Below are positions 3,360 through 57,788 of a DNA stretch of 64,000 nucleotides, one piece after another. The position numbers and the translations under genes are program-made. Origin of the DNA: Gemmatimonadales bacterium (GTDB lineage: Bacteria; Gemmatimonadota; Gemmatimonadetes; Gemmatimonadales; GWC2-71-9); the NCBI GenBank assembly GCA_035559715.1, contig DATMAW010000161.1, positions 2,271 through 66,270 of the forward strand. Direction: 5' to 3'. Below the pieces are notes generated by a model. The model ran no database searches. It saw only the letters and a list, made by a program, of their open reading frames with translations, and was not told the origin of the DNA. How positions within the stretch are numbered: the first letter of the stretch is position 1; each line of letters opens with the position of its first letter.

Positions 3360-3373
3360 CGAAAAGACCCGCC

Positions 3374-3913
3374 ATGCCACGCAGGGGATCGCGAACGAAA
3401 CAGCCAACGCGGCGCCGGCGTTCGGTGCGTCGCCGACCACCCGGTGCCGTGCTCCGGTCGCAGGTCGCCACACTCCTCGACTGGAGGAACGCCCACGTTG
3501 ACTTCGATACGGCAGTCGCGGGCATCCCGCCCGACCTCCGCGGCAAACGGCCGGCAGGCCTGCCACACTCGCTGTGGGAGCTGATCGAGCACGTCCGCGT
3601 GTGTCAAGGGGATATCCTCGACTACTGCGTGAATCCCGACTATCGCGAGGGCACGTGGCCGGACGACTATTGGCCCTCCTCACCTGAGCCACCAACCGCC
3701 GACGCGTGGGACGAGAGCATCGCCGCCGTCCGGCGCGATCTGGCCACCCTCAAGCGCATGGCGATGGACCCAGAGATCAACCTCGAAAGCCCGCTCCCCT
3801 ACGCTCCACAGGCTACGTATCTACGGGAGCTGCTGCTGGTGGCGGATCACAACGCGTACCACGTGGGGCAAATCGTGCTGGTGCGGAGGCTGCTGGGGAT
3901 CTGGCAGGGGTGA
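3374..3913 (+). CDS. DinB-superfamily (DinB_2-like) protein
   Basis: SLWELIEHVRVCQGDILDY...LLLVADHNAYHVGQIVLVRRLLG is typical of the DinB four-helix-bundle family. The Arg-rich first ~25 codons are doubtful; GTG at 3449 is an alternative start. Confidence 0.75.
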   Translation: MPRRGSRTKQPTRRRRSVRRRPPGAVLRSQVATLLDWRNAHVDFDTAVAGIPPDLRGKRPAGLPHSLWELIEHVRVCQGDILDYCVNPDYREGTWPDDYWPSSPEPPTADAWDESIAAVRRDLATLKRMAMDPEINLESPLPYAPQATYLRELLLVADHNAYHVGQIVLVRRLLGIWQG

Positions 3914-3928
3914 AAGGCACGAGCCTTC

Positions 3929-5092
3929 TCACTTCAGCCACCGGCTGAACTCCTCGGTTCCGTTGCCCGCCCGATCCACCGTCACCACCCCCAACCTCAC
4001 TCGTCCATCCTTCCACGCCTCGAGCCGCATGAACCCGCTCGCCGTCCGCGCGAACAGCATTCCCTCGCGGAACGTTGTGGGACTCGTGTGACCGTAGTAC
4101 CCTCCGCCGCTCACCACTTCGAATTGGGTCGCAGCATCAGGGCCGAACACCTGCAGCGAGTGCTCGTGCCCTGCCGCGTACACAAGCGGGCGATTGGGCG
4201 CCAGCGCCGCAGAGAGCGCCAGGCGCATGTGGGCGTAGTGCTCGTGGGCGAGATCCTGGGGAATGGCACCCATCATTCGCACGATCGGGTAGACCGACCC
4301 GATCAGGGGCACGGGCACCCAGAGCCAATCCGCCGCGTGACGCAACGGGAAGATGTGGTCGGTCCACGGGAAGTAGCCCCCGTGGGGGCCCGCCGAGCGC
4401 AGCGGGTGGTGTGCCGCAACGATGACGTGGCGGCCCACCGCGCGCCCCAGTATCGCGTGCAGCGAATCGGCCACTTCCGTTTCGCTGTCTGCCGGACAAC
4501 TCGACGTCGGGTGCCGCGGTTTGGCATTCTGGTGCAACCACCACTGCGTGTCGAGGAAGACGAGCAACAACGCGCTGCCCGCCTCCCGCGCCACGGGACC
4601 GGGGCAGCCGTCCGGAGGTACGAACATCGCGCCGCGATACGGCTGCTGTTCGATAAAGCGCTGTTGGCGCCGCACGGCGTCCCAGCCCTCGGGCGCAAGC
4701 TTGGCCCAATCGTGGTTCCCGGGCAGGAAGTAGCCGGTCGCCCCGGTTTCCCGGAGCACATCCACCTGCGCCATCAAACGACGCTCGGCTTCCGCCCGGT
4801 TCCTGGCGGCTGAGTCCGGCATGCCGGCCGGATAGATGTTGTCGCCAAGAAAGACGACTACTCGCTCACCGCCCGCCTCGCGCAGCGCGCGAGCGAGCGC
4901 GATGAGCACCGGCTCTCCGTTCGGCGCCGGCAGGCCCGCGTCACCGATCAGGAACACCGTGGTCTCGACCTGCCCAGGAAAGGGGACCGGCGCCGGTGCG
5001 GACTGGATCGGCGCAATCGCTGCGCAGGCATCCAGGATCAGCGCAATGGAGACCAAAGGAATCCGCGACACTGCTCCCCTCCGACGCCGCAT
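3929..5092 (-). CDS. exported metallophosphoesterase (purple-acid-phosphatase-like motif set)
   Basis: Motifs LIGDAG, VVFLGDNIYP, LPGNHDW, VAAHHP and AAGHEHSLQ. Start re-called to MRRRRGAVSRIPLVSIALILDACAAI (signal/lipobox-like) at 5092; the 70 upstream codons of track ORF 3929..5302 look spurious. Confidence 0.8.
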   Translation of the reverse strand: MRRRRGAVSRIPLVSIALILDACAAIAPIQSAPAPVPFPGQVETTVFLIGDAGLPAPNGEPVLIALARALREAGGERVVVFLGDNIYPAGMPDSAARNRAEAERRLMAQVDVLRETGATGYFLPGNHDWAKLAPEGWDAVRRQQRFIEQQPYRGAMFVPPDGCPGPVAREAGSALLLVFLDTQWWLHQNAKPRHPTSSCPADSETEVADSLHAILGRAVGRHVIVAAHHPLRSAGPHGGYFPWTDHIFPLRHAADWLWVPVPLIGSVYPIVRMMGAIPQDLAHEHYAHMRLALSAALAPNRPLVYAAGHEHSLQVFGPDAATQFEVVSGGGYYGHTSPTTFREGMLFARTASGFMRLEAWKDGRVRLGVVTVDRAGNGTEEFSRWLK

Positions 5093-43831: not shown

Positions 43832-45481
43832 CTATGACACCGACGCCGGGGCCTGCTCTTCAACGGCTGCGGCTGGTCGCAGCACACCGGCGTCGCACGG
43901 CCCACATTCTTCGGGTGCCGGCAGGTGCGCCTCCCACCAGCGGCGCGCGCGCCCTTCGGTCCACGGCTCGGCGAGCGGCACGGCGTCGAGCCGGCGGATC
44001 ACATCGGTCACGCTCTGCGGGCGGCTCTCGGGCTTCTTCGCCAGACAGGCGAGCACGAGGTCGTCCAGCTCTCGCGGGACGTCGAATTCCGCGAGCTGCG
44101 AGGGTGGGACGGGCGGGTCCTGGATGTGGCGGTACATCATCTTCACGGGCGTATCGGCGTCGAACACGGTGCGACCGGTGAGCAACCAGTAGGCGACGCA
44201 GCCCAGCGAGTAGATGTCCGCTCGCGGGTCCACGGCATCGCCCACGGCCGCCTCCGGCGAGATGTAGGCCGGGGTGCCCGTGGCGATCTGCGGCGCCGTG
44301 AGGCGCGTGTCGCCGCCATTTCCCGTCACGGCCTTCACCAGGCCGAAGTCGAGCACCTTGATGAAGTCCACCATGAGACCCAGCCGGGCCGCGAAGATGT
44401 TGGAGGGTTTGATGTCGCGGTGGACCAGACCGTTCGCGTGCGCCTCGCCCAGGGAAAGGCAGGCCTGGCGTATGAAGTGGACGACGCGCTCGGGCGGCAC
44501 GGGACCGAAGCGCTGCACCAGAGCTTCGAGATTCACGCCGTCCAGCAGCTCCATGGCGTAGTAGAGCGTGCCATCGTCCGCCGTGCCGAAGTCGTACAGC
44601 TCGATCGTGTGTGGGGAGCGAAGGGCGGCGGCGGCGCGGGCCTCGCGCTTGAATCGCTCGACGACCACGCGACCGTCGCGTCCCGCGCGGGAAAGCGCCT
44701 CCGGCCGGATCAGTTTGATTGCGGCGGGACGGGCCAGCAGGCGGTGCTCCGCGCGGTGCACTTCACCCATGCCGCCGGCGCCGAGCACTTCGCCGAGGCG
44801 GTAGCTCCCCAGCTCCCGGGCTGAGCGCACCTGCCGCCCGAGCTGACGGATCAGATGCGCAGGCAGCACGGCGAGCAAAGCGGAGATGTAGCTCGGGACG
44901 AAGGCCTCGAACATCTGCCGGGCGCCCAGCGCCACCTCCGGGCCGCGAATCGCCTTGACGATGCCCCACGCCACGGGATCCATCGTGGCGGCGGCGAGGC
45001 TCGCGACGAGGATCTTCTTCGGCGTGTTGGGAGCGATCGAGGGGTACGCCAGAATGATGATGCAGGTGAACGAGATGCCGCGGAACTCCACCGGCGGCAC
45101 CCACAGCGTGTACAGGCCGGTGAGCAACGCCATGACGACTTCGAAGACGAGCCCGAGGTCAAGCAGCAGCGCGTGGCGGTCCTCGAATGCCCTGGACATC
45201 AGGACCATTCCCAGAGACACCACCACGCCGGCTCCCGCAATCAGTGCGCCGGGCATGGGCCACATCTGTGCGTAGCTCCCCATCAGGTCCGGGCCGAAGC
45301 GCGACAGCGAGAGGTACAGACCGAAGGGGATCAGCCACAGGAAGGCGAACGCGAGGGCCGCCGTGCCGACGCGGCGGCAGGCCTGAAACGCCACGTCTCC
45401 GGGCAGTGAGGCACCTGACCCCGGGGACCGGGCCGGGGTGCGCTCGGCAACGAGGCGGCGGGAGGGGGCGGGCACGGTCAT
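43832..45481 (-). CDS. polytopic membrane Ser/Thr protein kinase (N-terminal ~6-TM domain, C-terminal Hanks kinase), paralog 2
   Basis: Same architecture and clear full-length similarity to 5091..6737 (shared ...QLGRQVRSARELGSYRLGEVLGAGGMGEV...ARPAAIKLIR...HRDIKPSNIF...DFGLVK...GTPAYISPE...DTPVKMM...EPWTEGRARRWWE). Confidence 0.85.
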   Translation of the reverse strand: MTVPAPSRRLVAERTPARSPGSGASLPGDVAFQACRRVGTAALAFAFLWLIPFGLYLSLSRFGPDLMGSYAQMWPMPGALIAGAGVVVSLGMVLMSRAFEDRHALLLDLGLVFEVVMALLTGLYTLWVPPVEFRGISFTCIIILAYPSIAPNTPKKILVASLAAATMDPVAWGIVKAIRGPEVALGARQMFEAFVPSYISALLAVLPAHLIRQLGRQVRSARELGSYRLGEVLGAGGMGEVHRAEHRLLARPAAIKLIRPEALSRAGRDGRVVVERFKREARAAAALRSPHTIELYDFGTADDGTLYYAMELLDGVNLEALVQRFGPVPPERVVHFIRQACLSLGEAHANGLVHRDIKPSNIFAARLGLMVDFIKVLDFGLVKAVTGNGGDTRLTAPQIATGTPAYISPEAAVGDAVDPRADIYSLGCVAYWLLTGRTVFDADTPVKMMYRHIQDPPVPPSQLAEFDVPRELDDLVLACLAKKPESRPQSVTDVIRRLDAVPLAEPWTEGRARRWWEAHLPAPEECGPCDAGVLRPAAAVEEQAPASVS

Positions 45482-45626: not shown

Positions 45627-45959
45627 GCCCTGTTCTACGATCGCTTTGGCGAGGAGATCGTCACCGAACTCGTGAACTGGTTCAACGACGTGGATGCCAC
45701 GTACCGCACCGACCTGCGGGAGCTGAACGAACTGAACTTCACTCGGTTCGACGCCAAACTCGAGCAGCGGCTCGCCGAGCTGGCGGCAACTACGCGAGCC
45801 ACTGCCACGCTGACGTCCGTCGTTGCCGAAGAGTGGAGTAACGTGCGGCGGCGGGATGCTCCCGTCCCCCCGCCCGGGAGAGGCCCTATCGGGCGGGCAA
45901 GGACTCCGCGAGGAGGTCGTCCAGTTTGCGGACCTCGGCAGTCGCGCCCAAGCGGCTAA
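45609..45959 (+). CDS. small hypothetical ORF initiated inside repeat copy 1 (possibly truncated or decayed at its 3' half)
   Basis: MPMGRAALFYDRFGEEIVTELVNWFNDVDATYRTDLRELNELNFTRFDAKLEQRLAEL... looks protein-like for ~60 codons. It then becomes low-complexity Arg/Pro and overlaps the 3' end of the convergent TPR gene by ~70 nt. Confidence 0.35.
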   Translation: MPMGRAALFYDRFGEEIVTELVNWFNDVDATYRTDLRELNELNFTRFDAKLEQRLAELAATTRATATLTSVVAEEWSNVRRRDAPVPPPGRGPIGRARTPRGGRPVCGPRQSRPSG

Positions 45960-46890
45960 AAGCGCTGCGGGCTGCCAGGGCGGCGTCGCGGGCATCTCCG
46001 TGCCGTCCGAGAACGTTCAACAGGCGTGCGAGGTCCCGCCGACCCTCGGCGGCAAGCCATGGGCGCTCGTGTTCCTCGGCCTTCGCGATCACCGTGTGCA
46101 GCAGTGGTTCAGCCTCGGCCGGTCGCTCCGCGCCCGCGAGCGCCAGGGCGAGCACCCGGAGGTCCTCCGCCTCGCCGACTACGTCACCCAGCTCGCGATG
46201 CCTGCGCAGCGCGTGCGAGATTTCCCGCAGCCCCACGGCCACGTCGCCGGCGAGGATTCGGATCTCGGCCCGACCGGCTCTCGCCTGAGCAGCCAGCGCC
46301 AGGTCACCGGATGCGTCGGCCTGTTGTACCGCCTCATCCGCCTCTTCCAGCGCCCGGGTGAGATCTCCCTGCTCCCGATAGCAGCGAGCCATGTTGTGGC
46401 GCGCTTCCGCGATGCCGCGGGGGATTCCTGCCTGCTCGAACGCAGCCACCGCCATCGTGTGATAGCCCACGGCTCGCCCGTAGTCGCCCTGCATGATGGC
46501 GACGATGCCGAGGTTGTTGCAGGCCCGACCGACCGTGCTGTGGTCTCCGTCGCCGCGCGCCTCGGCGAGCGCCTTCATGAAGTACTCGGTTGCCTCAGCC
46601 GCCTTACCGCTCTCCAGGGCGATTGCCCCCCGGACGTTGAGCGCCCTCGCCTCCACGGCGCGGTCCCCACGCTCGCGCGCCTTATGAGATGCGACCTCGA
46701 CCCACCGCGCGCCTTCCCCATGGCGCCCCAGTCGCGCGTGCGCGATACCGCACAGCAGCGCGAGCGTGGGCGAACTCTCCAGCTCCTCCTGCGACGAGCC
46801 GCTGAGATGCTGCAGCACCGCCGCGTGCTGGCCAGTGTCCGAGTAGTAGATGGCCTGTCTGAGCTGCATGAGAGGCTGCCGATAGTCCAT
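45886..46890 (-). CDS. TPR-repeat protein
   Basis: Multiple TPR units (ALNVRGAIALESGKAAEATEYFMKAL, CNNLGIVAIMQGDYGRAVGYHTMAV, RHNMARCYREQGDLTRALEEADEAV). Start re-called to MDYRQPL at 46890, immediately after the upstream stop. Confidence 0.8.
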   Translation of the reverse strand: MDYRQPLMQLRQAIYYSDTGQHAAVLQHLSGSSQEELESSPTLALLCGIAHARLGRHGEGARWVEVASHKARERGDRAVEARALNVRGAIALESGKAAEATEYFMKALAEARGDGDHSTVGRACNNLGIVAIMQGDYGRAVGYHTMAVAAFEQAGIPRGIAEARHNMARCYREQGDLTRALEEADEAVQQADASGDLALAAQARAGRAEIRILAGDVAVGLREISHALRRHRELGDVVGEAEDLRVLALALAGAERPAEAEPLLHTVIAKAEEHERPWLAAEGRRDLARLLNVLGRHGDARDAALAARSAFSRLGATAEVRKLDDLLAESLPAR

Positions 46891-46891
46891 G

Positions 46892-47581
46892 CTACCAGGA
46901 GACGGCGAAGCCGGAGAAGTGGAACACGGCAACCGAGAACCGCTTCAGTGTGGCGTCGTGAGCCGCGGGCACGCGCACCCAGGGGATCCCGGTGAGTTCC
47001 TGATACCAGACGCCCAGGCGTTGCTCGCGGAGCAGTTCGTCGTCGGCGTCCACGTCCCCGTCGCCGTCGAGATCCTGCTCGGCTCCCCCGTAGTACACGT
47101 CGAGGGCCAGCGGGCTCGTGGGGTTGAACTGGAGACCGGACGGCCCGAACTTCACTCGCACCAGTGAGGAATCAATGGTGAGTGTGATCAGGACGGAGTC
47201 GCCCTCGGCGACGGCCGATCCGTCAGGCAGCCGTAAGAGGGCGTCTGCCGGCACCGTCACCTGGAGGAAGGGGGCGTTTCCGCCGCTGCCAGCGTAGTCA
47301 ATGCGCAGTTGTTCTGCGCGACCTCGGCGGGCCCAGATACTCGCCTGATACCGCTCGAGCGGGGTAGGTTCGGCCTGCGCGGACGCCAACACCCGGCCCG
47401 GCAAACGTGGCACCACAACGAATCGGGGTGCGCTCCCACGGTCGGGCCAACGGAGGAAGTGCATGGCGACTTCGGGCCGGCCGTCCAACACGGCTGTGGG
47501 GCGTGGGGGGCCGATCGGCTCCGAGCATGCCAGCGCGCCAAGCGTCGCGCCGATCACCCACGCTTTCAGGGCCCTACGCAT
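46892..47581 (-). CDS. lipoprotein, hypothetical, with acidic DxDxDG-type cluster
   Basis: Strong RBS AAAGGAGGatgtATG at 47581. Lipobox ATLGALAC. Contains QDLDGDGDVDADDE. The 111 upstream codons of track ORF 46892..47914 are not credited. Confidence 0.7.
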   Translation of the reverse strand: MRRALKAWVIGATLGALACSEPIGPPRPTAVLDGRPEVAMHFLRWPDRGSAPRFVVVPRLPGRVLASAQAEPTPLERYQASIWARRGRAEQLRIDYAGSGGNAPFLQVTVPADALLRLPDGSAVAEGDSVLITLTIDSSLVRVKFGPSGLQFNPTSPLALDVYYGGAEQDLDGDGDVDADDELLREQRLGVWYQELTGIPWVRVPAAHDATLKRFSVAVFHFSGFAVSW

Positions 47582-47823: not shown

Positions 47824-49188
47824 CTAGTCCAGCTGCCCTGATTGGATCAGTCTCCGAAGCCGCTGTCGCGAAACGCCCAAGCGCTGTGCCGCATGACTCC
47901 GGTTGCCCTGGCACTGTTCGAGCATCAGGCGGGCGGCGGTGCGACTGATCTCCCGCAGCGACGCCGGAAACGGCAGGCTGCCACTGGAGGGGATTGGGGC
48001 TGCATCACCTCTAGGTACGAGCTCGGACGGCCGCACCTCCCCTGGCGGGGACAGCAGCAGGGCGCGTTCGACGGCGTTCTTCAGCTCGCGAATATTCCCG
48101 GGCCAGTGGTAACTGCGGAGCGCCTGGCGGACCTCGGGCGTCAGCGACGGGACCGGGAGGCCGTGCTGTCGCGCCAGCGACTCCAGTAGGGCCGCGCTGA
48201 TGAGGATCGTATCCTCTCCCCGTTCCCGCAGTGGCGGCAACTCGAGCACGATGACGCTAAGCCGGAAGTACAGGTCGCTGCGGAAAGTCCCGTGCTTCAC
48301 GGCGTGTTCGAGGTTCTCGTTCGTAGCGGCGAGAATGCGCACGTCCACGGTCCGGCTCTTCGTGCCGCCTACGCGCCGAATGCTCTTGTCGTCCAGGACC
48401 CTGAGCAGCTTGGCCTGCGTTTCGAGGGGGAGGGTCCCCACCTCGTCGAGGAACAGCGTACCTCCGTCGGCCACTTCAAACAGCCCCGGCTTGGCGACGT
48501 GGGCGTCGGTGAACGCGCCACGTTCGTGCCCGAACAACTCGGACTCCACCAGGCGTTCCGGCAGCGCGGAGCAGTTGACCGCGACGAACGGGGCCGCGCG
48601 CCGGGGGCCGCCGTCGTGAATGGCGCGAGCGAGTAACTCCTTTCCAGTCCCCGTTTCTCCGACAATGAGCGCCGTTGCGTCGCGCCGCTGCAAGATCATT
48701 GAAGCGCGGGCGAGGGTGGCCTTCAATGCGTCGCTGTCCCCGACCAGAGCGGAGAAGGCCTCGTCCTTCGCCTTCAGTTGCAGTTGCTCCGCGCGCCGCA
48801 TGTGATGGCGGTGGCGATCAACCGCGGCCCCGAGGGCATTGCGCAGGAGCTCGAGGTCTTCGGGGAGGGCGAAGTAGTCAGCGGCACCGCGCTGCACCAG
48901 TGCCGTGGCGGTGCGGCGGCTGGGGTCGGCTCCAACGACGAGAATAGGACATGACAGGCCTTCCCTCTGCGCATCGAGCCAGTTGCGGGCCTCTTGCTCT
49001 GCGCCACCCGCTGCGAGGACAACAGCGGCAACCTCCGGAGTCGCTATGCAGGCATCGTTCGCGTCCAGGAATGAGACTACCGCTCCGCCTCCTGGGACTT
49101 GCCCCCAGATGTCGGCGAAGGCCCTGGAAAGCTCGACAACAAGTACGCGAGTGACGCCCAACAGTCCTCCGTTTTCCTCTCGGTGCAC
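47824..49188 (-). CDS. sigma-54-dependent transcriptional activator (bacterial enhancer-binding protein) with degenerate receiver-like N-terminal domain
   Basis: AAA+ core GETGTGKELLARAIH, GAFTDA (GAFTGA loop variant), ESELFGHERGAFT, RSDLYFRLSV, and C-terminal Fis-type HTH NRSHAAQRLGVSRQRLRRLI. The N-terminal ~125 aa has a receiver-like layout but lacks the usual DD/D/K residues (VLVVELSRA; VVLAAGG; YFALP). Confidence 0.9.
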   Translation of the reverse strand: MHREENGGLLGVTRVLVVELSRAFADIWGQVPGGGAVVSFLDANDACIATPEVAAVVLAAGGAEQEARNWLDAQREGLSCPILVVGADPSRRTATALVQRGAADYFALPEDLELLRNALGAAVDRHRHHMRRAEQLQLKAKDEAFSALVGDSDALKATLARASMILQRRDATALIVGETGTGKELLARAIHDGGPRRAAPFVAVNCSALPERLVESELFGHERGAFTDAHVAKPGLFEVADGGTLFLDEVGTLPLETQAKLLRVLDDKSIRRVGGTKSRTVDVRILAATNENLEHAVKHGTFRSDLYFRLSVIVLELPPLRERGEDTILISAALLESLARQHGLPVPSLTPEVRQALRSYHWPGNIRELKNAVERALLLSPPGEVRPSELVPRGDAAPIPSSGSLPFPASLREISRTAARLMLEQCQGNRSHAAQRLGVSRQRLRRLIQSGQLD

Positions 49189-49298
49189 GGCTGCGTGTGG
49201 GTGAAGGCATGTCAGCTAGCACAAAACGTACCAGTACTTGGCTTCTGGGGTGTCATTGTAACACGTTGTCAATAAACAATTTCCAGAGATATGTGACG

Positions 49299-49314
49299 TG
49301 GCGCGCACGTTGCC
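49299..49314 (+). promoter_or_regulatory. sigma-54 (-24/-12) promoter upstream of the HD-GYP-like gene
   Basis: TGGCGC-gcacg-TTGCC against consensus TGGCAC-N5-TTGCW: the GG and GC dinucleotides have exact spacing and 14 of the 16 positions are consensus-compatible. It sits 58 nt upstream of ATG 49372 (RBS GGAG at 49361), in the AT-richer divergent region next to the EBP gene. Confidence 0.6.
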
Positions 49315-49371
49315 TCTTTCATCAACCGATACGCGACGCACCACCGCCACAGTCTGCTTCGGAGCTACAAC

Positions 49372-50112
49372 ATGGAACGAATCGTATCGGCGACGGCCCG
49401 CAGGCGGCTCCCGCCCCCGTTTTTCCCGGCTCGGACCAGGGCCCGAAGCAGGAGCAGCCGAATCGCCGAGAGACAGCGCTGGCGCTCTGTTATAGGCGTC
49501 GCGAGGCAGCTCGATGTGTCGGATCTCTGCACGGCGGGGCACTCCATCCGAGTGGGGGGCCTTGCCCACGCCATGGCCCGTCAATTGGGCCTGTCACGGC
49601 GGGAAGTCCGCCTGATTCGGATCGGGGGGCTGCTGCACGACATCGGCAAGGTGGGGGTGCCCAAGGCGTTGCTTTCCAAACCGGAGCCGCTCACGGACGA
49701 TGAGTACCGTCGAGTCATGGCTCACACCACGCTCGGCGCCCGCATGCTCGCGCCGCTCGGCACGCGATATCCGACGATCCTGGGGATCGTTCGGTGGCAC
49801 CACGAGCGCGTTGACGGGCGCGGTCTGCCGGATGGGTTGCGCGGCGACGCCATTCCCCTCGGCGCGCGCATCGTGGCCGTGGCGGACGCGTTCGACGCGA
49901 TGACGAGCGCGAGGCCGTATCGCCGCTTCCCGCTCTCGGCGGCAGAGGCCATCGTCGAGCTTGAGCACGGCGCGGGCACTCAATTCGACGCCACCTGTGT
50001 GCGGGCGCTCCGCTGTGCGTGGTCCACCGCCCTCGCCGACATCGCAAGCACGATGATGCGGTCCCCGACAGCCCCGGGAGGGCTGGTTGGCGCCCTGGCA
50101 CCTCTGACCTAG
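49372..50112 (+). CDS. stand-alone HD-GYP-like domain protein (probable c-di-GMP phosphodiesterase; GYP replaced by GLP)
   Basis: HSIRVGGLAHAMARQLGL, LLHDIGKVGVP, HHERVDGRGLPDGL, AVADAFDAMTSARPYR. Confidence 0.85.
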   Translation: MERIVSATARRRLPPPFFPARTRARSRSSRIAERQRWRSVIGVARQLDVSDLCTAGHSIRVGGLAHAMARQLGLSRREVRLIRIGGLLHDIGKVGVPKALLSKPEPLTDDEYRRVMAHTTLGARMLAPLGTRYPTILGIVRWHHERVDGRGLPDGLRGDAIPLGARIVAVADAFDAMTSARPYRRFPLSAAEAIVELEHGAGTQFDATCVRALRCAWSTALADIASTMMRSPTAPGGLVGALAPLT

Positions 50113-50393
50113 ATCCGGGTACGCTGGGAGGGACTACAAGCGGCTGGCCACAGAGCGGAGAATCGAGGTCTCCAAACAAGGGCTAAGCTCTTCGACCGAC
50201 CCGACGAGGTACGCAATTCCGAGAAGGGGAGCCTCGCCGGCCACCCCACCGCGGCGTTCGACGACGGCCGCATCTTCGACCTGACGCCCGGCACGGTGTT
50301 CTACATCCCCCGGAGCCGCACGACAGTCGGGTGGTGGGCAACGAGCCCTATGTCTCTCTGCATCTCCTGGGGGCCGATCGGTACGCGAAGTAG
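50113..50393 (+). pseudogene. possible frameshifted cupin-domain remnant
   Basis: One frame reads ...SEKGSLAGHPTAAFDDGRIFDLTPGTVFYIP. After a C5 run (50307-50311) a second frame continues PEPHDSRVVGNEPYVSLHLLGADRYAK*. Joined, this resembles cupin motif 2 (PG....IP...PH...N.g.EP). No intact ORF is present. Confidence 0.3.
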
Positions 50394-50479
50394 TCCCTCC
50401 ATGACGCGTGCCTGGAGCGCCGTCGAGTCACGCCACTTCTTGACACCGGCTTGACGCCGGGCCCGGACCTTGGCCCGGT

Positions 50480-52798
50480 ATGCATCAACGCGCATTGGCA
50501 TTCTTTCGCCGATTGATTCGTCATCGGACGGCTGTGCTCGGCGCCACGGGCGTCGTCGTCCTGGTGGCGGTCCTGGGCGCCCGCCGTGTGCGCGTGGACT
50601 TCAGCGTGGAGCAGTTCTTCCTCCCATCCGGGCCGGAGCGGGAGGCGTTCGACGCCTATCGCCACACCTTCCCCCGCGAGGACGCACAGGTCACCCTCTT
50701 CTGGCAGGACGCCCGCCCGCCCGGCATCGTCCTGTACCGCGACATGGAGCGCGCCGCCCGGTTGTTCGAGGAGGCGGGCCTCGAGGACGTGCGGTGGATC
50801 GGCAACGCGCTGGTGGCCGAGTCGGAAGGCGACGCCGGGCTGTCGCTGGTACCGTTGCTGGACTCGATCACCACCGACAACGTGGTAGCCGCGCGCCTCG
50901 CGCGCCATCGCGACGATCCCCTGCTCCGAGGTTTCCTGTGGGACGCTGGCCAGCACGTGTTCGCCCTGCACGGCTACCTGGCTCCCGAGCAGAACCACGA
51001 CGCCGGCCGGCGCGCGGTGGAAGAGACCCTCACCGAGCGGCTCGCCGCGCTCCGCGTGCAGTCCGCGCATCTGGTGCTGGGCGGCCTGCCCATCGCCCGA
51101 TCCCGCGCGCCCAAGCTGCTGGCCCGCGACCTCAACGTGCTGGCCGCCGCGGCCGTGGCGATCTCCGGAGTTGTCCTGTTGTACTTCCTGCGCCATCCCC
51201 TCCAGGTGGTGCTGCTGCTGGCCTCCGTGGCGCCAGCGTATCTCTGCACCGTGGGCCTCATGGGCGTTCTCGGGAAGCCCATCAGCGTACTGACCAGCTT
51301 CATCCCGGTGGTGGTCCTGGTGGTGGGGATGAGCGACGCCGTCCACCTCGTGGCCGAGTTCCGCCGGCGCCTGGCCGCGGCCGAGCCTGCGGCGGACGCC
51401 GTGACGCACACGTTCGCCACGCTCGCGGTGCCGTGCTTCTACACATCGCTCACCACCGCCATTGGCTTTGGGACCCTCGCCGGAACCGGCATCGGCATGG
51501 TCATGGATTTCGGCCTGTTCACCGCGCTGGCGATCCTCCTCACCTACTCGTTCACGTCCACGCTGCTTCCGGTCTTGCTCTCTTTCGTACGCCCCCGCGC
51601 GTTCGACGATTGCGGGCTGTCCGCTCCCTGGATCCGCCGTCTCGTGGCCGCCGGGGTGGCGCAGCTTCGCCGCCGGCGTCGCACGGTGGCACTGAGCCTC
51701 GGGAGCCTGAGCGTGGCGGGACTCATTCTCGGCCTTGGGCTCCGGGTCAACACCCTGCTGATAGACGACATCAACCGGCGGGCGGCGATCATGCGAGACA
51801 TCCGCTGGATCGAGTCGCGGGGATTCGGCCTGTTCCAGCTCGTGATCCACGTCAAGGCGGGCGGTGCTGAGCCGCTGCACCGCCCCGAAGCCCTGGCCTG
51901 GATGAACGGCGTTCGGGACTTCATGCGGAGCGACCCACTGGTGTTGAGCGCGTTCGCTCCAGCGGATCTGATTACGCCGCTCGCGCACGCGTTCGACGAT
52001 ACCGGCGGCAACGAGGGCGTGATCACCTCCACCGAAGAGGCAGCCCAGTTGTTGTTGCTGGTCGAAATGGCGGACCGCGGGGTGGTGCGCTCCCTCTATG
52101 CGCAGCCGGAGGGCGAGGCCCAGGTCATTGCCACCGTGCGAGACGCGGGGTCGGTCGAACTGCAACCGTTCCTCGATCGCGTGGACGCGTATCTCAACGC
52201 GCACCCCTTCCCGGATGGGACGGCCGGACCCACCGGGACGGTGATCATGATCCAGGCGTTCACCGCCAGGCTGCTCCGCAACCTGGTCCCGAGCGTGGCG
52301 CTGGCGATGATCCTGATCTGTGCCTGCGTCATGTGGATGTTCCGTTCGGTTCGACTCGGCCTGCTGGCGATCCTGCCCAACCTGATCCCGCTGGCCGTGT
52401 TACTCGGCGCCATGCGGCTCGGTGCGTTCGACCTCAAGCCGTCCACCATCCTAGTCTTCTCGGTGGCGTTTGGGATCGCGGTGGACAACTCCATTCATCT
52501 ACTGGGGCGCTTCCTCAGCGCCACGACACAGACGCCGGCTGTGGAGGCGGCGCTGGAGGAGGCGCTGCAAGCCGCGGGCCCCGCGCTGGTGATGAACACC
52601 GTGGTCGTGGTGGCGGGATTCGCGGTGCTGCTGGCGTCCAGTTTCCAGGTGCTCTTGCTCATCGGCCTCATGACGGTGGTGAGCGCGGTGGCCGCGCTGG
52701 CCGCCAACCTGTTCGTCTTTCCGGCGATCGTGGCCGTGGCATGGAGGCGCGCCCCGGCACGCGGGGCCCTGCCGCGCCGACTGGAGCGAGTCATATGA
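50480..52798 (+). CDS. RND-superfamily exporter of the MMPL/COG1033 (HpnN-like) type
   Basis: 772 aa with two 6-TM bundles, each preceded by a periplasmic domain. N-terminus FFRRLIRHRTAVLGATGVVVLVAVLGARRVRVDFSVEQFF; SSD-like regions (VVVLVVGMSDAVHLV...; VFSVAFGIAVDNSIHLL). Confidence 0.85.
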   Translation: MHQRALAFFRRLIRHRTAVLGATGVVVLVAVLGARRVRVDFSVEQFFLPSGPEREAFDAYRHTFPREDAQVTLFWQDARPPGIVLYRDMERAARLFEEAGLEDVRWIGNALVAESEGDAGLSLVPLLDSITTDNVVAARLARHRDDPLLRGFLWDAGQHVFALHGYLAPEQNHDAGRRAVEETLTERLAALRVQSAHLVLGGLPIARSRAPKLLARDLNVLAAAAVAISGVVLLYFLRHPLQVVLLLASVAPAYLCTVGLMGVLGKPISVLTSFIPVVVLVVGMSDAVHLVAEFRRRLAAAEPAADAVTHTFATLAVPCFYTSLTTAIGFGTLAGTGIGMVMDFGLFTALAILLTYSFTSTLLPVLLSFVRPRAFDDCGLSAPWIRRLVAAGVAQLRRRRRTVALSLGSLSVAGLILGLGLRVNTLLIDDINRRAAIMRDIRWIESRGFGLFQLVIHVKAGGAEPLHRPEALAWMNGVRDFMRSDPLVLSAFAPADLITPLAHAFDDTGGNEGVITSTEEAAQLLLLVEMADRGVVRSLYAQPEGEAQVIATVRDAGSVELQPFLDRVDAYLNAHPFPDGTAGPTGTVIMIQAFTARLLRNLVPSVALAMILICACVMWMFRSVRLGLLAILPNLIPLAVLLGAMRLGAFDLKPSTILVFSVAFGIAVDNSIHLLGRFLSATTQTPAVEAALEEALQAAGPALVMNTVVVVAGFAVLLASSFQVLLLIGLMTVVSAVAALAANLFVFPAIVAVAWRRAPARGALPRRLERVI

Positions 52799-53604
52799 AC
52801 GCGTCGAGAACGGTGAAGGCCCTGAGACTCGGCCGCGCTGCCGCATTCCTCGTGCTGGGCGCGCCGGTCCAACGCCTCGGGGCGCAAGAGGCGGCATCCG
52901 AATCGGGGCGGCAAATCGCCGAACGCGCGATTGCCCAGCTCAAGGGCTACGGTGACGTGGCGGCCGAGATCACGATCGTGCTCAAAGCCCGCCGGGGCGA
53001 TGCCAGAACCTGGACCGTGCGGTTGCTGAGTCTGGAGCAGCCCGGCGTCGAGCGAACCATCGTGGTCTTCGAGCGACCGCGGGACGTGCGGGGAACGGCG
53101 CTGCTCACGGCCACGCGGCCCGGGCGCGAGAACGAGCAGTGGCTCTATCTGCCGGCGGTGGGCAGGGTGAAACGCATCGCGTCGCAGGGCCGCTCCAGCT
53201 CGTTCATGGGGACGGAGTTCTCGTATGAAGACGTCGCGCCCGACGACGCGGCCCGATACCGCTACGGCGAGACGCGCGCCGACACGCTGGACGGCGTCCC
53301 GGTGACTGCGGTGGAGCGGTTTCCGCAGGATCCCGGATCCGCCTACGGTCGTCAGCTCCTGTGGGTGGACGGCGACGATCGGCCGATCCGCATTGACTAC
53401 TTCGACCGCGCCGGCTCGCAGGTCAAGACACTCCATTACCGCGGCTATCGGTTGCGGGCAGGTCGCTTCTGGCGCGCCGACGAGATGGAGATGGTGAACC
53501 ACAAGACGCTGGCCAGCACCACGCTGCTGTGGACCGCGTATCGGTTTGGCGCCGGGCTTCGCGCGAGCGATTTCGAGCCCGACGCCCTGGGTCGAACGCC
53601 ATGA
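52795..53604 (+). CDS. LolA-like outer-membrane lipoprotein-sorting-type protein
   Basis: The start ATG overlaps the RND stop (ATGA). Signal peptide present. TIVVFERPRDVRGTALLT....NEQWLYLPAVGRVKRIASQGRSSSFMGTEFSYEDV is the hallmark of the LolA_like family. Confidence 0.75.
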   Translation: MNASRTVKALRLGRAAAFLVLGAPVQRLGAQEAASESGRQIAERAIAQLKGYGDVAAEITIVLKARRGDARTWTVRLLSLEQPGVERTIVVFERPRDVRGTALLTATRPGRENEQWLYLPAVGRVKRIASQGRSSSFMGTEFSYEDVAPDDAARYRYGETRADTLDGVPVTAVERFPQDPGSAYGRQLLWVDGDDRPIRIDYFDRAGSQVKTLHYRGYRLRAGRFWRADEMEMVNHKTLASTTLLWTAYRFGAGLRASDFEPDALGRTP

Positions 53605-54827
53605 AACCTCGCAGGCTTCGGCGAGCGCATCCACTCGGTCGCTGCGCATCCCCCGTGTTTCCGCCGCCTGCTAGGGCTGTCCTGGCGTTCGGGTGCGCGC
53701 TGGCCTGGTTGCTGCCTGCGGCGGCCTCCGCGCAATGGCGCGGCGACATTGGCATCACGGAGCGGCTCTATGCGTCGCCGGGGGCCGGGGTCGGCCCGGC
53801 GCGCCATGAACCGGTCATCGTCGCCGGCGCCGCGGGCCGCACACGGTTGGGAGCGGCGCGCCTCGCGTTCGGGGCGTCGGTGCGGGCCGGTGATGAAGAT
53901 TATGGTGTTCTCGCCGACGTGCATGAGTTGAGCGCGGGGCTGACGCGCGGCCGGTGGTCCTTGCGAGCCGGCGTCTCCCAAGTGTCCTGGGGCGTGCTGG
54001 AGTCCGCGCAGCTGGTGGACGTGCTCAACCAGCGGGCAATGGTCCCCGGTGTCAGCGGCGGACTCAAGCTGGGCCAGCCTATGGTCAACCTGGGAGTCCG
54101 CGGGATCTGGGGGACGGGGACGGTGGACTTCTATCTGTTGCCGTGGTTTCGTGCCCGGCCGTTCGTGGGACGGGCCGCGCGCGTGTGGTCCGGTCAGATG
54201 GTGAGCGCAGACGAGCCGGCATTCGGTCCCGCGGACGGAAGGCATCGCATGGACTGGGCGGTGCGCGGCACGCGGGGCTTCGGCGAGTGGGACGTGGGCC
54301 TGAGTCTCTTTCGGGGCACGGATCGCGAGCCGGCATTCCAATCCCTCATCGGCGAGGAAGGCTTTGGCCGATTACTGCCGCGCTACGACGTGGTCCGGCG
54401 GGTGGGCGTGGACATCCAGTGGACTCACGGCCGCTGGCTGGGCAAACTGGAAGCCGCGAGCGGCAACCCGTCGTCAGGTCGCTACGTGGCCGTTGGTACG
54501 GGACTCGAATTCGCGCCGGCGGACTACGTGAGCGCGTTCGTGGAATACGTGCACGACAGCCGCGGAGCCAGGGCGCCCACGTCGTTGGAGCGTGACGTGT
54601 GTGTCGGCGGCCGCCTGCTCTACCGTGACGGACATGTGGGTCTCCGCGGCTCGGTGGACCGTGTCACCGGCAACGCTTCGGTGGGGTTCGAGACGGCGCG
54701 CCGGCTCTCCAATTCGACCGCGGTGACGCTCCAGGCCATGGCGTTCCTGGGCGACGCGGCCAGCGAGCCGCCGGTGGCGCTACGCCACGACAGCAACGTC
54801 GCACTCGGCGTGCATCGCTACTTCTGA
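53601..54827 (+). CDS. putative outer-membrane beta-barrel protein (hypothetical)
   Basis: The start ATG overlaps the previous stop (ATGA). Signal peptide (...LLPAAASAQ), alternating beta-strand-like pattern and aromatic C-terminus ...LGVHRYF. Confidence 0.6.
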   Translation: MKPRRLRRAHPLGRCASPVFPPPARAVLAFGCALAWLLPAAASAQWRGDIGITERLYASPGAGVGPARHEPVIVAGAAGRTRLGAARLAFGASVRAGDEDYGVLADVHELSAGLTRGRWSLRAGVSQVSWGVLESAQLVDVLNQRAMVPGVSGGLKLGQPMVNLGVRGIWGTGTVDFYLLPWFRARPFVGRAARVWSGQMVSADEPAFGPADGRHRMDWAVRGTRGFGEWDVGLSLFRGTDREPAFQSLIGEEGFGRLLPRYDVVRRVGVDIQWTHGRWLGKLEAASGNPSSGRYVAVGTGLEFAPADYVSAFVEYVHDSRGARAPTSLERDVCVGGRLLYRDGHVGLRGSVDRVTGNASVGFETARRLSNSTAVTLQAMAFLGDAASEPPVALRHDSNVALGVHRYF

Positions 54828-54982
54828 GCCGGGTCCTCCGCGCGGAACGCGGGACTAGCCGGTGGCTCGCCGGGCGGCTCAATTTGGTGCCGTTCGGTCG
54901 GCGGGTCCGCTCAAGAGTGAGATGAACGACGCGACGATTCGTGTGGTGGATCGCGCCGATCTACTCCGTGGCAACATTCAGT

Positions 54983-55033
54983 CTTGCGACCCGAGCGGAT
55001 GCACTCGCCTCCGCGATGCCTATGGGCCGAGCC
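54983..55033 (+). repeat. 51-nt intergenic repeat, copy 2
   Basis: CTTGCGACCCGAGCGGATGCACTCGCCTCCGCGATGCCTATGGGCCGAGCC, located between two convergent gene ends. The ORF it initiates (MPMGRANQPPRAS...) looks non-coding. Confidence 0.95.
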
Positions 55034-55256
55034 AACCAACCACCGCGAGCATCCGCAACCGCCGCTCCGCACGTCGCCGGTCACGACTTTGCGCGCGCCG
55101 GTCCGCGTTCATCCGCCGGTCGGATCGTGCTGACCCCTGGCCCCCGGAGCCCCCAGACGTCGAATCAGATGTCATGACTGCGCGTGGCTCCTTTGAAGGG
55201 AAAGGGTCTACTGGCAATGGCCACCCGGTCGCCCACCGCAGCACCGCAAGGTGACC

Positions 55257-57788
55257 TCAAAACGCCATTCCACCCCCCACATACACCCCCAACCGCCGCT
55301 GGTCGCCGCGCACCAACGCCACCGAGGCCGTGCTCGCCCGGGTGAGCAACGAGATCCAGAACCCGCCACCCACCGCCGTGTGCCACGTATCCGCGCCCGC
55401 GGGGTCCGCGTCGTAGAACACGCGGCCGGCGTCCGTAAGGCCGAACACGCCGAAGTGCCCCGGCAAGAGCAAGAAGATTTCCGCGAGCTGAAGCCGCAAC
55501 TCGGCGTTACCGAACACCGCAGCATCACCGGCGAAACGGTTCTCTCGCCCCAGCCGCACCGTTGACCTGCCGCCCAGGAACGCGGACTCCTGGAACGGAT
55601 ACGGGCCCCAGACCTTTCGCCCGCCGGCACGCAGCGCAAGCGTCGGCACCACGGTTCCCTGGCCCGCCGACAGATAGGTGGCGGCCTCGCCTTCCACCGC
55701 ACCGAACGTGCGCGCCACGTCCCACAGATCCGGACTCACGCTCCCCTGCGCGCGAAGCAGCACGCCGCTCCGAGCCGCCGCAGGTACATCGCGCGTGTCG
55801 AGACGGAACTCCGTCCGGAGACCGGTTTGACCGAACTTTCCCGCCCCATACAGGGGCAGCAGTGTGAACAAGTACCGAGTCGGATTGGTCTCCGTGCTCG
55901 AGTACTTGGCAAATGGTCCGATCGTCCAGTCAGCGCGATCACCCAGCGGAACGACGATTGACGGTGCCAGCATGAACTGACTGTGCGCCACGCGATAGAA
56001 CTCCCTGGGGCCCGGCGCCGGCGCTTCGTTGCCGAAGCCGTGGAAGTTCAACACCTCGATCCCCGACGCGCGCGCCGCGAGCTGAAACCGCAGGCGCGAG
56101 TTGGATCGGAACAACGTTGCCCCGAGATCGCCCCTGCCGGTCCGCGCCATGGTCGCGTAGCCACCGCGCAGCTGCAACCACGACTTGAACGGCACATGGC
56201 GGAATCCGTACCCCGTGCGGAACGTGCCCGCGCCGAGGAACGCGCCCACGTCCGGCGCGTAGCTGAGCCACACCACCGGCTGCCAGCGGGCGCCCCAGTC
56301 TCGCGGCGGCACGACGCGGTCGGGGGCCCAGCCTTCCGGATGGGGCCACGGCCTCCGGTCAACCGGTACGCTGCCCGCCACGCGGTCGCCGTCCGCCGAA
56401 TACACACGCACGCCACCGGTATTAGAGGAATCCACGATCTCGTCCGCGCCGCCGCCGGCCACCACGCGCAGCGTGATGGGACTCGCCCCCCCACGCACCA
56501 CGAGGCGATCATCACCACCGTACAGATAGACTCTGATCTCGGACGTCTCGGAAGGAACGAACCGCCGGCTCAGATACGGAGTGCCGGCGGCCGGTCCGAG
56601 GGTCACCAGCACCGCGCCATCGTCGCGCCGGTCCACCATCGCCACATCCGCCGCGTCAGTGCCGTGCACGTCCGACTGCCGAGTGAGCAGGCGGTAGAAC
56701 TCCTCTGCGGCGCGTGGCAGGTCGTCGCGGCGCCGCTTGAGCGCAACCACGAGCCGCGCGCTGTCGAGCGGCCGGTACTCGGGAGGCATGGCGCCCGCGG
56801 CTCGCTCGATCACTGCATCCGTCATGCGCCGCTGAAACGCCGCCGCCGTCGAGTCCCAGACGGCCTTCTCGAGCCCGGACAGCAGGAAGCGGTCAATCTC
56901 CCGGCCGTTCCAGTTGAGCCCGAACATGCCCGGGTACTTCTCGCCGAAGTTCACGAGCAACGGCGCCGCAAGCCGCGCGATGCCGAGCATCAAGCCATCG
57001 AAGCGGGCAAACGCCTGATCGCGATCTTCCGGGAGCGCGCGCCAGCGCCGCGTGGCCCCGTCCTCGAACCGCACGAAGTTCCACTGGCCGTCGTGCCGGT
57101 CCCAGTCGCCAATGAACACGTCGAACAAGCGGGCGTTGAGCAGCGATCGCGCGTCCACCCTGTCCGCGGCACTCGCCCGAACCCTGGGCAACAGTCCGTC
57201 CGCGTCCAGGATCTCCCGCGCGCCCGCGAATGGCCTCGCTTGTTCGGTGATCGCGCGCTCCTCGATGAACCCGAGAGTGCCACGGAACCGCTCGCGGAAC
57301 TCTCCCAGGCCCGGGTCGTCTGGCAACACGACCAGGATGGGATCGGTGTGCAGGATCCCGGCGGCTTCCATCAACGGAGCCGTGATGGCAGGTCCCGCCG
57401 GATGCGCCGAGCTGATCTGATCCTGCACCAGCCGCTCGACGAACGTGCCCGTGAAGATCTCGGGCAGCACGCCGGGGTCCTTGTCTATCGAGCGGAATCC
57501 GTACAACTGCCCGTTGGCGCCGCGGAACCGCAGGGATTTCGTCTGCCGGCCGCCGCCCGCGGTGGTGGGAGTGAGACCGCCGCCGAACGTGCGGAGATCG
57601 AGCACGGGCGCGCGGATGGGCGTGGTCCAGAGCGCGCGGTACTCCGTGCCGAACAACCAGCGGTGCAGCGCGCCTGCGCCGTAGTGCTCCCCTGCTGCAA
57701 TCGTGATCGTGTCTCCGGCGGTCTGCGCCGCCACGGCGAGGGGCCACAGCACAAACCCAAGCAGGACAACGACGATCGCCATGACCAC
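55257..57788 (-). CDS. Omp85/BamA-superfamily outer membrane protein with a non-POTRA N-terminal domain
   Basis: Signal peptide MVMAIVVVLLGFVLWPLAVAAQ. The C-terminal ~330 aa is a surface-antigen (D15) barrel ending GVYVGGGMAF. The N-terminal ~450 aa is unrecognised and contains FIGDWDRHDGQWNF. Confidence 0.8.
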   Translation of the reverse strand: MVMAIVVVLLGFVLWPLAVAAQTAGDTITIAAGEHYGAGALHRWLFGTEYRALWTTPIRAPVLDLRTFGGGLTPTTAGGGRQTKSLRFRGANGQLYGFRSIDKDPGVLPEIFTGTFVERLVQDQISSAHPAGPAITAPLMEAAGILHTDPILVVLPDDPGLGEFRERFRGTLGFIEERAITEQARPFAGAREILDADGLLPRVRASAADRVDARSLLNARLFDVFIGDWDRHDGQWNFVRFEDGATRRWRALPEDRDQAFARFDGLMLGIARLAAPLLVNFGEKYPGMFGLNWNGREIDRFLLSGLEKAVWDSTAAAFQRRMTDAVIERAAGAMPPEYRPLDSARLVVALKRRRDDLPRAAEEFYRLLTRQSDVHGTDAADVAMVDRRDDGAVLVTLGPAAGTPYLSRRFVPSETSEIRVYLYGGDDRLVVRGGASPITLRVVAGGGADEIVDSSNTGGVRVYSADGDRVAGSVPVDRRPWPHPEGWAPDRVVPPRDWGARWQPVVWLSYAPDVGAFLGAGTFRTGYGFRHVPFKSWLQLRGGYATMARTGRGDLGATLFRSNSRLRFQLAARASGIEVLNFHGFGNEAPAPGPREFYRVAHSQFMLAPSIVVPLGDRADWTIGPFAKYSSTETNPTRYLFTLLPLYGAGKFGQTGLRTEFRLDTRDVPAAARSGVLLRAQGSVSPDLWDVARTFGAVEGEAATYLSAGQGTVVPTLALRAGGRKVWGPYPFQESAFLGGRSTVRLGRENRFAGDAAVFGNAELRLQLAEIFLLLPGHFGVFGLTDAGRVFYDADPAGADTWHTAVGGGFWISLLTRASTASVALVRGDQRRLGVYVGGGMAF

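Follow-up and report, generated by a model that had tools for sequence, protein, structure and literature searches.

The locus considered here raises the question of whether a 16-nt motif lying between two divergent genes of a Gemmatimonadales bacterium is a sigma-54 promoter and, if so, which genes it serves. The window, i.e., the whole stretch of DNA that was analyzed, comprises 64,000 nt of contig DATMAW010000161.1 (assembly GCA_035559715.1), and all coordinates below are those of the window. The motif, which we call P_HD, lies at 49299–49314 on the plus strand, between a gene for a sigma-54 enhancer-binding protein (EBP) on the minus strand and a gene for a stand-alone HD-GYP-type protein on the plus strand. 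A first-pass annotation, made from the letters of the sequence, had called it a near-consensus sigma-54 promoter for what may be a single transcript covering the HD-GYP gene and a downstream transporter cassette headed by an RND gene. Comparison with related loci makes it likely that the intergenic region 49189–49371 holds two back-to-back sigma-54 promoters, that the HD-GYP gene is the last gene of the sigma-54 unit, and that the RND cassette is separate. P_HD itself is very probably genuine, as an unremarkable sigma-54 promoter of a small HD-GYP signaling gene, and it probably does not serve the transporter genes farther downstream. The core call of the first-pass annotation appears to be right, on weaker grounds than "near-consensus" would imply, while taking the transcript on into the RND cassette was most likely a mistake; the second promoter, on the opposite strand and directed at the EBP gene (P_EBP), had been overlooked.

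The flagged motif and its conservation in related loci

P_HD, TGGCGCgcacgTTGCC, is a sigma-54-type −24/−12 element. The string read at 49299–49314 of the plus strand, TGGCGCGCACGTTGCC, has its GG at 49300–49301 and its GC at 49312–49313, and the gap between them is exactly 10 nt, so the location and spacing originally claimed are borne out; a transcript would be predicted to start at ~49325. The published consensus for sigma-54 promoters is mrNrYTGGCACG-N4-TTGCWNNw (Barrios et al. 1999, as quoted in PMC2725144). Written in the same way, P_HD is TGGCGC-N5-TTGCC, which has two mismatches to TGGCAC-N5-TTGCW with the TGGC and TTGC cores intact. The departures from consensus fall at −22 and −11 (G/C for A and C/G for W, respectively), and the spacer is G+C-rich. 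The element is non-coding and has the same orientation as the HD-GYP gene, and 58 nt separate its end from the ATG at 49372, which is preceded by its own GGAG ribosome-binding site at 49361–49364, all as the first-pass annotation had it. The AT-richer setting that it described is also real, because the region 49175–49399 has a G+C content of 0.51–0.53, which is the lowest within 47–56 kb, where values elsewhere are 0.65–0.75.

The evidence that carries the promoter assignment comes from related loci. A scan of genome contigs with the HD protein returned mostly paralogs, and only two of the loci found in this way (L003 and L012) were syntenic; exact-product look-ups with the HD-GYP protein of the window and with its 99%-identical NCBI version found no contigs. 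Among relatives with a contig, L001 has the closest HD protein (66% identical when compared at full length and 75% when compared over the called product), and its gene order is that of the window, i.e., a TPR gene, a hypothetical gene, and the EBP gene on the minus strand followed by the divergent HD gene on the plus strand. A metagenome scan with an alignment of the ortholog-specific N-terminal domain of the EBP yielded 80 loci of the same EBP orthogroup. The divergent arrangement was represented by a set of 14 loci including the window, and an HD gene was detected in 11 of them; L083 and L095 are contigs that end early, and L133 faces a lipoprotein-like gene. As controls, we used 66 EBP-ortholog loci without the divergent arrangement, for example those where the EBP gene comes after glmS-dtd-maf in the same orientation.

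In each of the 14 loci, the pattern TGG[C/T]-N7-TTGC occurs on the strand that encodes the divergent gene. It was found on the opposite strand in none of the 14 and in none of the 66 control loci, and these counts support the claim that a sigma-54-type promoter pointing away from the EBP gene drives the HD-GYP gene. The motif reads TGGCGCgcacgTTGCG in L001, TGGCGCacacgTTGCC in L082, TGGCCCcgtcgTTGCG in L003, TGGCCCgctcgTTGCA in L012, TGGCCCcgcagTTGCA in L083, TGGCCCacggcTTGCG in L085, TGGCCCggtcgTTGCC in L108, TGGCCCctcgaTTGCA in L114, TGGCCTggcggTTGCG in L125 (where a second motif, TGGCTCtcagaTTGCA, follows 16 nt downstream), TGGCACcaaggTTGCC in L133, TGGCGTaccatTTGCG in L130, TGGTCCtccgcTTGCG in L149, and TGGTCCaagcgTTGCC in L095. 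When the loci are aligned on the motif, high information content is confined to TGGC, the C of position 6, and TTGC, and this sixth-position C is found in 13 of the 14 loci. There is essentially no conservation in the flanks (30 nt on the upstream side, 40 nt on the downstream side), where pairwise identities are mostly 25–45% (range to 50%), and the spacers vary. By dinucleotide shuffling, the chance of at least one match on the relevant strand of a 600-nt region is 0.017–0.035 per locus, and the summed log10 probability of presence in all 14 is −22.6 when the loci are taken as independent. This value makes the result look more significant than it is, given that the loci are related to one another and that the pattern was picked after seeing four of them.

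We also scored the regions with a weight matrix built from 90 17-mers, the predicted RpoN promoters of Geobacter sulfurreducens (PMC2725144, Additional file 3). Applied blindly, the matrix puts the P_HD site first on its strand in 10 of the 14 regions and at rank 2–3 in the rest, and in the window P_HD is the best match on its strand across the 600-nt region. Predicted leaders of ~56–80 nt with ribosome-binding sites recur in the orthologs inspected, with similar distances in L003 and L012. In the intergenic alignment of the window with L001, the conserved blocks are a 15-mer, TGGCGCGCACGTTGC; the minus-strand element, which reads AGCAC-N5-GTACCAGT on the plus strand; a GTAACAC block; part of the leader; and the ATG with the first six codons. 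In L133 (region 3319–4400 of that locus), the divergent motif (12.1 bits) faces a gene for a 276-aa lipoprotein-like protein and not an HD-GYP gene.

P_HD is overlapped by an inverted repeat, ACGTG-N5-CACGT (5-bp arms, ACGTG-GCGCG-CACGT). A terminator scan called a hairpin at 49293–49313, and we rejected this "terminator" as merely the palindromic portion of P_HD. The repeat is confined to the window, L001, and L082 (where it is shortened), and the other 11 loci keep the motif without dyad symmetry. Since the repeat is limited to the three closest relatives while the −24/−12 pattern is kept throughout, it is the −24/−12 pattern and not the dyad that is under selection. A sigma-70 consensus scan of 49000–55200 found no promoter, and an Rfam search of 49000–50600 gave no match. 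The predicted P_HD leader shows no structure beyond that of shuffled sequences (z = 0.18), and an 8-bp pairing between leader and coding sequence in the window was dismissed because it is not kept in L001.

The gene that P_HD faces extends, with its GGAG, over 49361–50112 on the plus strand, from the ATG at 49372 to a stop at 50112, and encodes a stand-alone protein of 246 aa. The product matches Pfam HD_5 (7e-33) and also HD, contains LHDIGK, and has the HD-GYP signature in the form HHERVDGRGLP, with L for the Y of HHExxDGxGYP; the orthologs have HHE..DG.G[Y/L/T]P. It is a putative cyclic di-GMP phosphodiesterase. The public NCBI record (P0001, 198 aa) begins at a GTG at 49516. The ATG at 49372 and the first six codons (MERIVS) are kept at the DNA level in L001 and L082, and thus this ATG is probably the real start and the gene probably comprises 246 codons.

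The opposite-strand element and candidate enhancer sites

A second sigma-54-type element, stronger than P_HD, lies 65 nt from it on the opposite strand and is absent from the first-pass account. This element, P_EBP (CTGGTACGTTTTGTGCT, 49218–49234, minus strand), has its GG at 49232–49231 and its GC at 49220–49219, and its predicted start is at ~49207. It reads TGGTAC-N5-GTGCT at 49233–49218 of the minus strand and is directed at the EBP gene. With 16.5 bits, it ranks first among the 127,968 positions of the window scored with the matrix, and the runner-up has 10.3 bits. On the EBP strand of the related loci, TGGTAC or TGGCAC followed by N5 and GTGC (GCGC in L114) is found in 11 of 14 loci, while the site in L012 is placed differently (TGGCACaggacCTGCA). 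The P_EBP sites are the top EBP-strand match to the matrix in 12 of the 12 regions, and the gap between the 5′ T of P_HD and the 5′ T of P_EBP is 65–68 nt in 13 of the 14 loci. In every locus inspected, the predicted P_EBP start lies upstream of a Shine-Dalgarno-like sequence and a start codon. The bases beyond GTGC are variable, and the element is therefore asymmetric, as a −24/−12 promoter should be.

The alternative that survives best is that the P_EBP element is one of two adjacent dyads to which the EBP binds as an enhancer, at about −100 and −120 of P_HD, and that the EBP gene is transcribed from a promoter of another type. Positions −100 and −120 are the classical enhancer positions in NtrC-type systems. 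The element is a perfect palindrome, TGGCAC-N5-GTGCCA, in L095 and L130; L108 and L133 carry palindromes without GC at −12 in its place; and a TGGnnC-N5-GnnCCA palindrome begins exactly 3 nt past the element. Because of the palindromes in these four loci, the alternative keeps an appreciable chance of being correct, and yet we think it doubtful. In most loci, the right half of the element is GTGC[T/G] followed by variable bases rather than the mirror sequence GTACCA; the element is the best sigma-54 matrix match of the window and of every region tested; the predicted starts precede ribosome-binding sites and start codons in all inspected loci; and no sigma-70-like promoter was found in the region. 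In L133, the P_EBP position is occupied by two tandem palindromes.

The neighboring palindrome, palindrome (a), is itself a candidate enhancer. Its copy in the window, TGGGTGaaggcATGTCA at 49198–49214, is degenerate and lies 3 nt past P_EBP on the EBP side, at about −120 from the P_HD start. The strict form TGGnnC-N5-GnnCCA is found exactly 3 nt past P_EBP in six loci (L083, L108, L114, L125, L130, and L149), with near-matches in L085 and L133 and weak copies in the window, L001, and L082; at the 66 EBP-ortholog controls, the strict form was found in none. The position of palindrome (a) overlaps the predicted P_EBP start, and its placement at about −120 of P_HD together with this overlap suggests that a protein bound there would activate P_HD and also serve in autoregulation. 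No palindrome mirroring it downstream of P_HD is consistent across the 14 loci. Several relatives (among L083–L149) have TGGnnC-N5-GnnCCA palindromes ~120 nt into the HD-GYP coding region, with no counterpart in the window. We did not take these intragenic palindromes for a second operator, since they coincide with conserved Trp...Gln codons and G/C third positions and may be a by-product of coding.

A second set of candidates lies in the spacer between the two promoters and has the form YAA-N4-TTR. Dyad 2, TAACACGTTG at 49259–49268, is a candidate EBP enhancer or IHF-like bending site, and a GTAACAC block there is kept between the window and L001. At the position of dyad 1, 49273–49282, the window has a near-match, TAAACAATTT, with T in place of the final R. 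Measured from the T of the P_HD TGG, YAA-N4-TTR dyads lie 25–27 nt upstream in 9 of 14 loci and 40–41 nt upstream in 5 of 14; for CAA-N4-TTR, the background frequency is 2.2e-4 per nt and strand. The sequence CAA-N4-TTR is part of the IHF consensus, and because the core of the spacer dyads resembles it, these dyads could be bending sites rather than EBP sites.

The RND cassette and the extent of the transcript

Downstream of the HD-GYP gene, after a gap of 368 nt, three genes lie on the plus strand: an RND gene of the MMPL/HAE3 type (50480–52798; Pfam and NCBIfam), a LolA-like gene (52795–53604; Pfam LolA_like), and a gene for a 408-aa protein (53601–54827). The last of these had been described as a barrel protein, and it has no matching family in Pfam or NCBIfam. 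The three genes are translationally coupled, and the two ATGA overlaps on which the first-pass annotation relied (52795–52798 and 53601–53604) are both real. From these overlaps and the apparent lack of a promoter in the gap, it had been proposed that one sigma-54 transcript may cover 49.3–54.8 kb.

We consider it unlikely that P_HD yields such a long transcript, running through the HD-GYP gene, the 368-nt gap, and the RND cassette. All of the genes are on the same strand, the gap has no sigma-70 consensus promoter, and an intrinsic terminator after the HD-GYP gene was not found, either by a consensus scan or by folding 50095–50240 against shuffled sequences (z = +1.05); given these negative terminator results, a degree of read-through into the cassette is possible. 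The linkage, however, exists only in this genome. Among the 84 loci obtained from the EBP and HD searches, none has a homolog of the RND, LolA-like, or third gene near the HD gene. Synteny with L001 stops right after the HD gene, at its stop codon, where L001 continues with convergent Ham1 and RNase PH genes, and these downstream genes of L001 are found nowhere in the 64-kb window. The downstream neighbors of the HD gene vary among the other loci.

The cassette, in turn, is found elsewhere behind unrelated genes. RND homologs that are 59–80% identical occur in other Gemmatimonadota, and in five loci (L162–L166) the trio of RND, LolA-like, and a 388-aa protein is equally tightly packed. Its neighbors there are a GFO/IDH/MocA oxidoreductase gene, a small open reading frame, or a divergent YdjM gene; none of the five loci has an EBP gene, and none has an HD-GYP gene before the cassette. 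What the cassette always has is an upstream element. In the window, this is a tandem TTGAC repeat, TTGACACCGGCTTGACG, at 50440–50456 on the plus strand, 23 nt before the RND start codon, which may be a promoter or a regulator site. An exact pattern match to the element is unique within the window. The form TTGACAnnGGCTTGACG (TTGACGgcGGCTTGACG in L164 and L165) lies 23–26 nt before the cassette start codon in the window and in L162–L166, and among the 166 loci collected it was found in none of the other 161. Thus, the RND cassette brings its own control element, and the view that the gap holds no promoter-like feature had missed it. The repeat has a period of 11 bp, which suggests either a promoter with its −35 region here or direct repeats bound by a response regulator.

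The gap itself is not A+T-rich. Between 50230 and 50393, it contains an apparent frameshifted C-terminal remnant of a cupin-like gene (..FDDGRIFDLTPGTVFYIP / PEPHDSRVVGNEPYVSLHLLGADRYAK*, ending at 50393; Pfam Cupin_2 is weak, E = 0.008), and this remnant suggests that the gap may be a rearrangement junction. From the lack of linkage in 84 related loci, the break in synteny with L001, and the autonomy of a cassette with an element of its own, the single transcript of 49.3–54.8 kb is not supported, and the RND, LolA-like, and third genes are probably an independent operon that stands apart from the conserved sigma-54 module. Convergent to the cassette, at 55257–57788 on the minus strand, lies a gene for an 843-aa protein with an Omp85-family C-terminus.

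Weighing the evidence and a possible regulatory module

Several points weigh against the reading of two back-to-back sigma-54 promoters with a separate cassette. The P_HD string is not rare, as the window has 22 sites with no more than two mismatches and 23.7 are expected from dinucleotide-preserving shuffles, and chance alone yields several sites of P_HD quality per 64 kb. Its matrix score of 7.8 bits has rank 25 among the 127,968 positions of the window and is low within the range of the training set (5.3–22.4 bits, median 15.7), and the matrix was trained on predicted, not mapped, promoters from another phylum. As a background, 2.65 million positions of related DNA give scores of at least 8 bits ~0.36 times in every 600 nt of a single strand. 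With two mismatches, an expected number of sites, and this score and rank, the term "near-consensus" was overstated, and P_HD stands out only because of its position and its conservation in relatives and not because of the string itself. The pattern used to score conservation was set after the first four loci, which left the other ten for a clean test, and relaxed after two more, and the clean test is therefore that on the remaining loci, where the evidence is still overwhelmingly in favor of conservation of P_HD. The enhancer is ambiguous as well, with two sets of candidate sites, and in the window both palindrome (a) and dyad 1 are degenerate. After the HD-GYP gene, as noted above, both the consensus scan and the folding of 50095–50240 failed to find a terminator. 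A search for the RpoN-box peptide found none in the 166 loci or in the window, which covers 64 kb of the genome, a result that is uninformative on rpoN. In favor of the reading, the survey of Francke et al. (PMC3162934, supplementary file 1) lists a sigma-54 gene (YP_002761129.1) and roughly a dozen EBPs for Gemmatimonas aurantiaca T-27, which is the type species of the order.

A different function for the P_HD motif is improbable. It could be a site for a dimeric transcription factor or an enhancer for P_EBP rather than a promoter, given the inverted repeat with 5-bp arms and a location ~90–106 nt upstream of the predicted P_EBP start, which is a typical distance for an enhancer. As described above, the repeat is limited to three loci and the motif has no dyad symmetry in the other 11, and the conserved positions, among them the sixth-position C that 13 of the 14 loci have, are exactly those contacted by sigma-54. 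That the motif is a functionless chance match, as its count and matrix rank would allow, is very hard to credit, since it recurs in every one of the 14 diverged loci with place and strand unchanged, keeps a fixed spacing from its partner, and is absent from the controls.

If P_HD and P_EBP are the two sigma-54 promoters of this region, the activator is probably close at hand. The EBP gene (47824–49188, minus strand) was claimed in the first-pass annotation, and the claim holds, as its product matches Pfam Sigma54_activat (2e-66), AAA_lid_14, and HTH_8 and has a Fis-type helix-turn-helix. Matches in NCBIfam and the PDB are to the NtrC family, and their alignments begin at residue 65–80 at the earliest; the closest solved relatives are the Aquifex NtrC-family proteins, FleQ, ZraR, and NifA. 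In the N-terminal domain (EBP residues 1–147, 48750–49188, minus strand), no Pfam match to Response_reg was obtained even at E≤10, and the string AAVVLAAGGAE is invariant in an alignment of four sequences. This domain is probably a divergent receiver-like domain that is not phosphorylated. The loop that contacts sigma-54 is GAFTDA and is kept across the EBP clade. GAFTDA is listed among the variants that retain activity (Kazakov et al. 2015, PMC4641369), and a protein with this loop, DVU2106, is assigned a regulon in the same work, which cites Fievet et al. 2011. A mechanical open reading frame call starts the EBP gene at a GTG at 49188, which has no ribosome-binding site; the real start may be a TTG at 49161 behind GGAGGA at 49170–49165, which is a better fit to the N-termini of the orthologs.

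The EBP gene is followed on the minus strand by a gene for a hypothetical protein (~46892–47581) and by a gene for a TPR protein (45886–46932; Pfam TPR matches). The order EBP, hypothetical, TPR is kept in L001, in L012, and in many metagenome loci, and the two genes are probably cotranscribed with the EBP gene. The sameness of this order across the orthogroup hints that the partners control the EBP. On the 3′ side of the TPR gene, at 43832–45481 on the minus strand, lies a Ser/Thr protein kinase gene. In the majority clade of this EBP (L096 and most of L084–L161), the EBP gene follows glmS, dtd, and maf in the same orientation, and GSFTDA or GSYTDA replaces GAFTDA, with L096 itself having GAFTDA. 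No sigma-54-like motif is consistent upstream of the EBP gene in this clade, and the target promoters of these EBPs would therefore lie elsewhere.

From these elements, the following course of events can be proposed. Sigma-54 holoenzyme would form closed complexes at both P_HD and P_EBP. The EBP would bind the conserved dyads in or beside the 65-nt spacer, and ATP hydrolysis by it would open one or both of the complexes. The P_HD transcript, starting at ~49325, would have a leader of ~47 nt with the GGAG and would encode the HD-GYP phosphodiesterase, whose synthesis would lower the level of cyclic di-GMP or a related dinucleotide. P_EBP would drive the EBP gene and probably also the hypothetical and TPR genes. 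The EBP operon would then be autoregulated, and the cotranscribed proteins, rather than a kinase, may set the activity of the EBP. What the comparison shows directly is that the motifs are present and conserved, how they are spaced, which genes surround them, and where synteny is kept; RpoN dependence, the transcription starts, the dyads bound by the EBP, and the enzymatic role of the HD-GYP protein are what we infer. A more speculative picture, which we regard as possible though rather unlikely, is a compact bidirectional module where a single EBP oligomer, located about −43 to −76 relative to each start, activates both promoters at short range without long looping and thereby couples synthesis of the EBP to that of the HD-GYP protein, with the EBP controlled through its non-phosphorylatable domain and the hypothetical and TPR proteins and with no histidine kinase involved.

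The arrangement resembles those of glnAp2/NtrC, pspA/PspF, and zraP/ZraR in having GG-N10-GC with TGGC and TTGC cores 56–80 nt before the start codon, an adjacent EBP gene whose product has an AAA+ sigma-54 interaction domain and a Fis-type helix-turn-helix, and an A+T-richer upstream region with dyads. Unlike in those systems, the promoter of the window deviates at −22 and −11 and has a G+C-rich spacer, and the EBP has GAFTDA and an N-terminus that is unrecognized by Response_reg. Divergent pairs of sigma-54 promoters that share upstream activator sites occur at Klebsiella nifJ/nifHDK and rhizobial nifH/fixA, and the present locus is like them in having two outward-facing −24/−12 promoters with regulatory sites between or around them, such that one activator could serve both. 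Here, in contrast, the −24 elements are 65–68 nt apart with the spacing conserved, and one of the promoters drives the gene of the activator itself; a distance of 65–68 nt between −24 elements accommodates no more than two 10-bp dyads, situated about −43 to −76 from each start. The EBP regulons of D. vulgaris (Kazakov et al. 2015, PMC4641369) offer a further parallel, since they also combine an EBP gene beside a conserved −24/−12 motif with dyads and a small local regulon and come from comparative inference; the locus of the window differs from them in its phylum and in its target, a stand-alone HD-GYP gene.

The module is a standard arrangement of sigma-54 promoter and EBP, and it leaves the general understanding of sigma-54 systems unchanged. 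What is specific here is the phylum, the promoter variant TGGC[C/G]C-N5-TTGC[G/C/A], the fixed back-to-back layout of 65–68 nt, the atypical N-terminus of the EBP, and the HD-GYP target. We know of no experimentally mapped sigma-54 promoter from Gemmatimonadota, and a literature search surfaced none. The analysis also provides two corrections to annotation, one to the place where the HD-GYP gene starts and one to the operon boundary ahead of the RND cassette. The regulon is small enough to test, with one or two promoters, and the variant TGGC[C/G]C-N5-TTGC[G/C/A] could seed genome-wide scans. Gemmatimonadota are a widespread and poorly studied soil phylum, and, if confirmed, this would be, to our knowledge, among the first sigma-54 promoter/activator modules defined in Gemmatimonadota and would tie sigma-54 control to the turnover of cyclic di-GMP in these bacteria.

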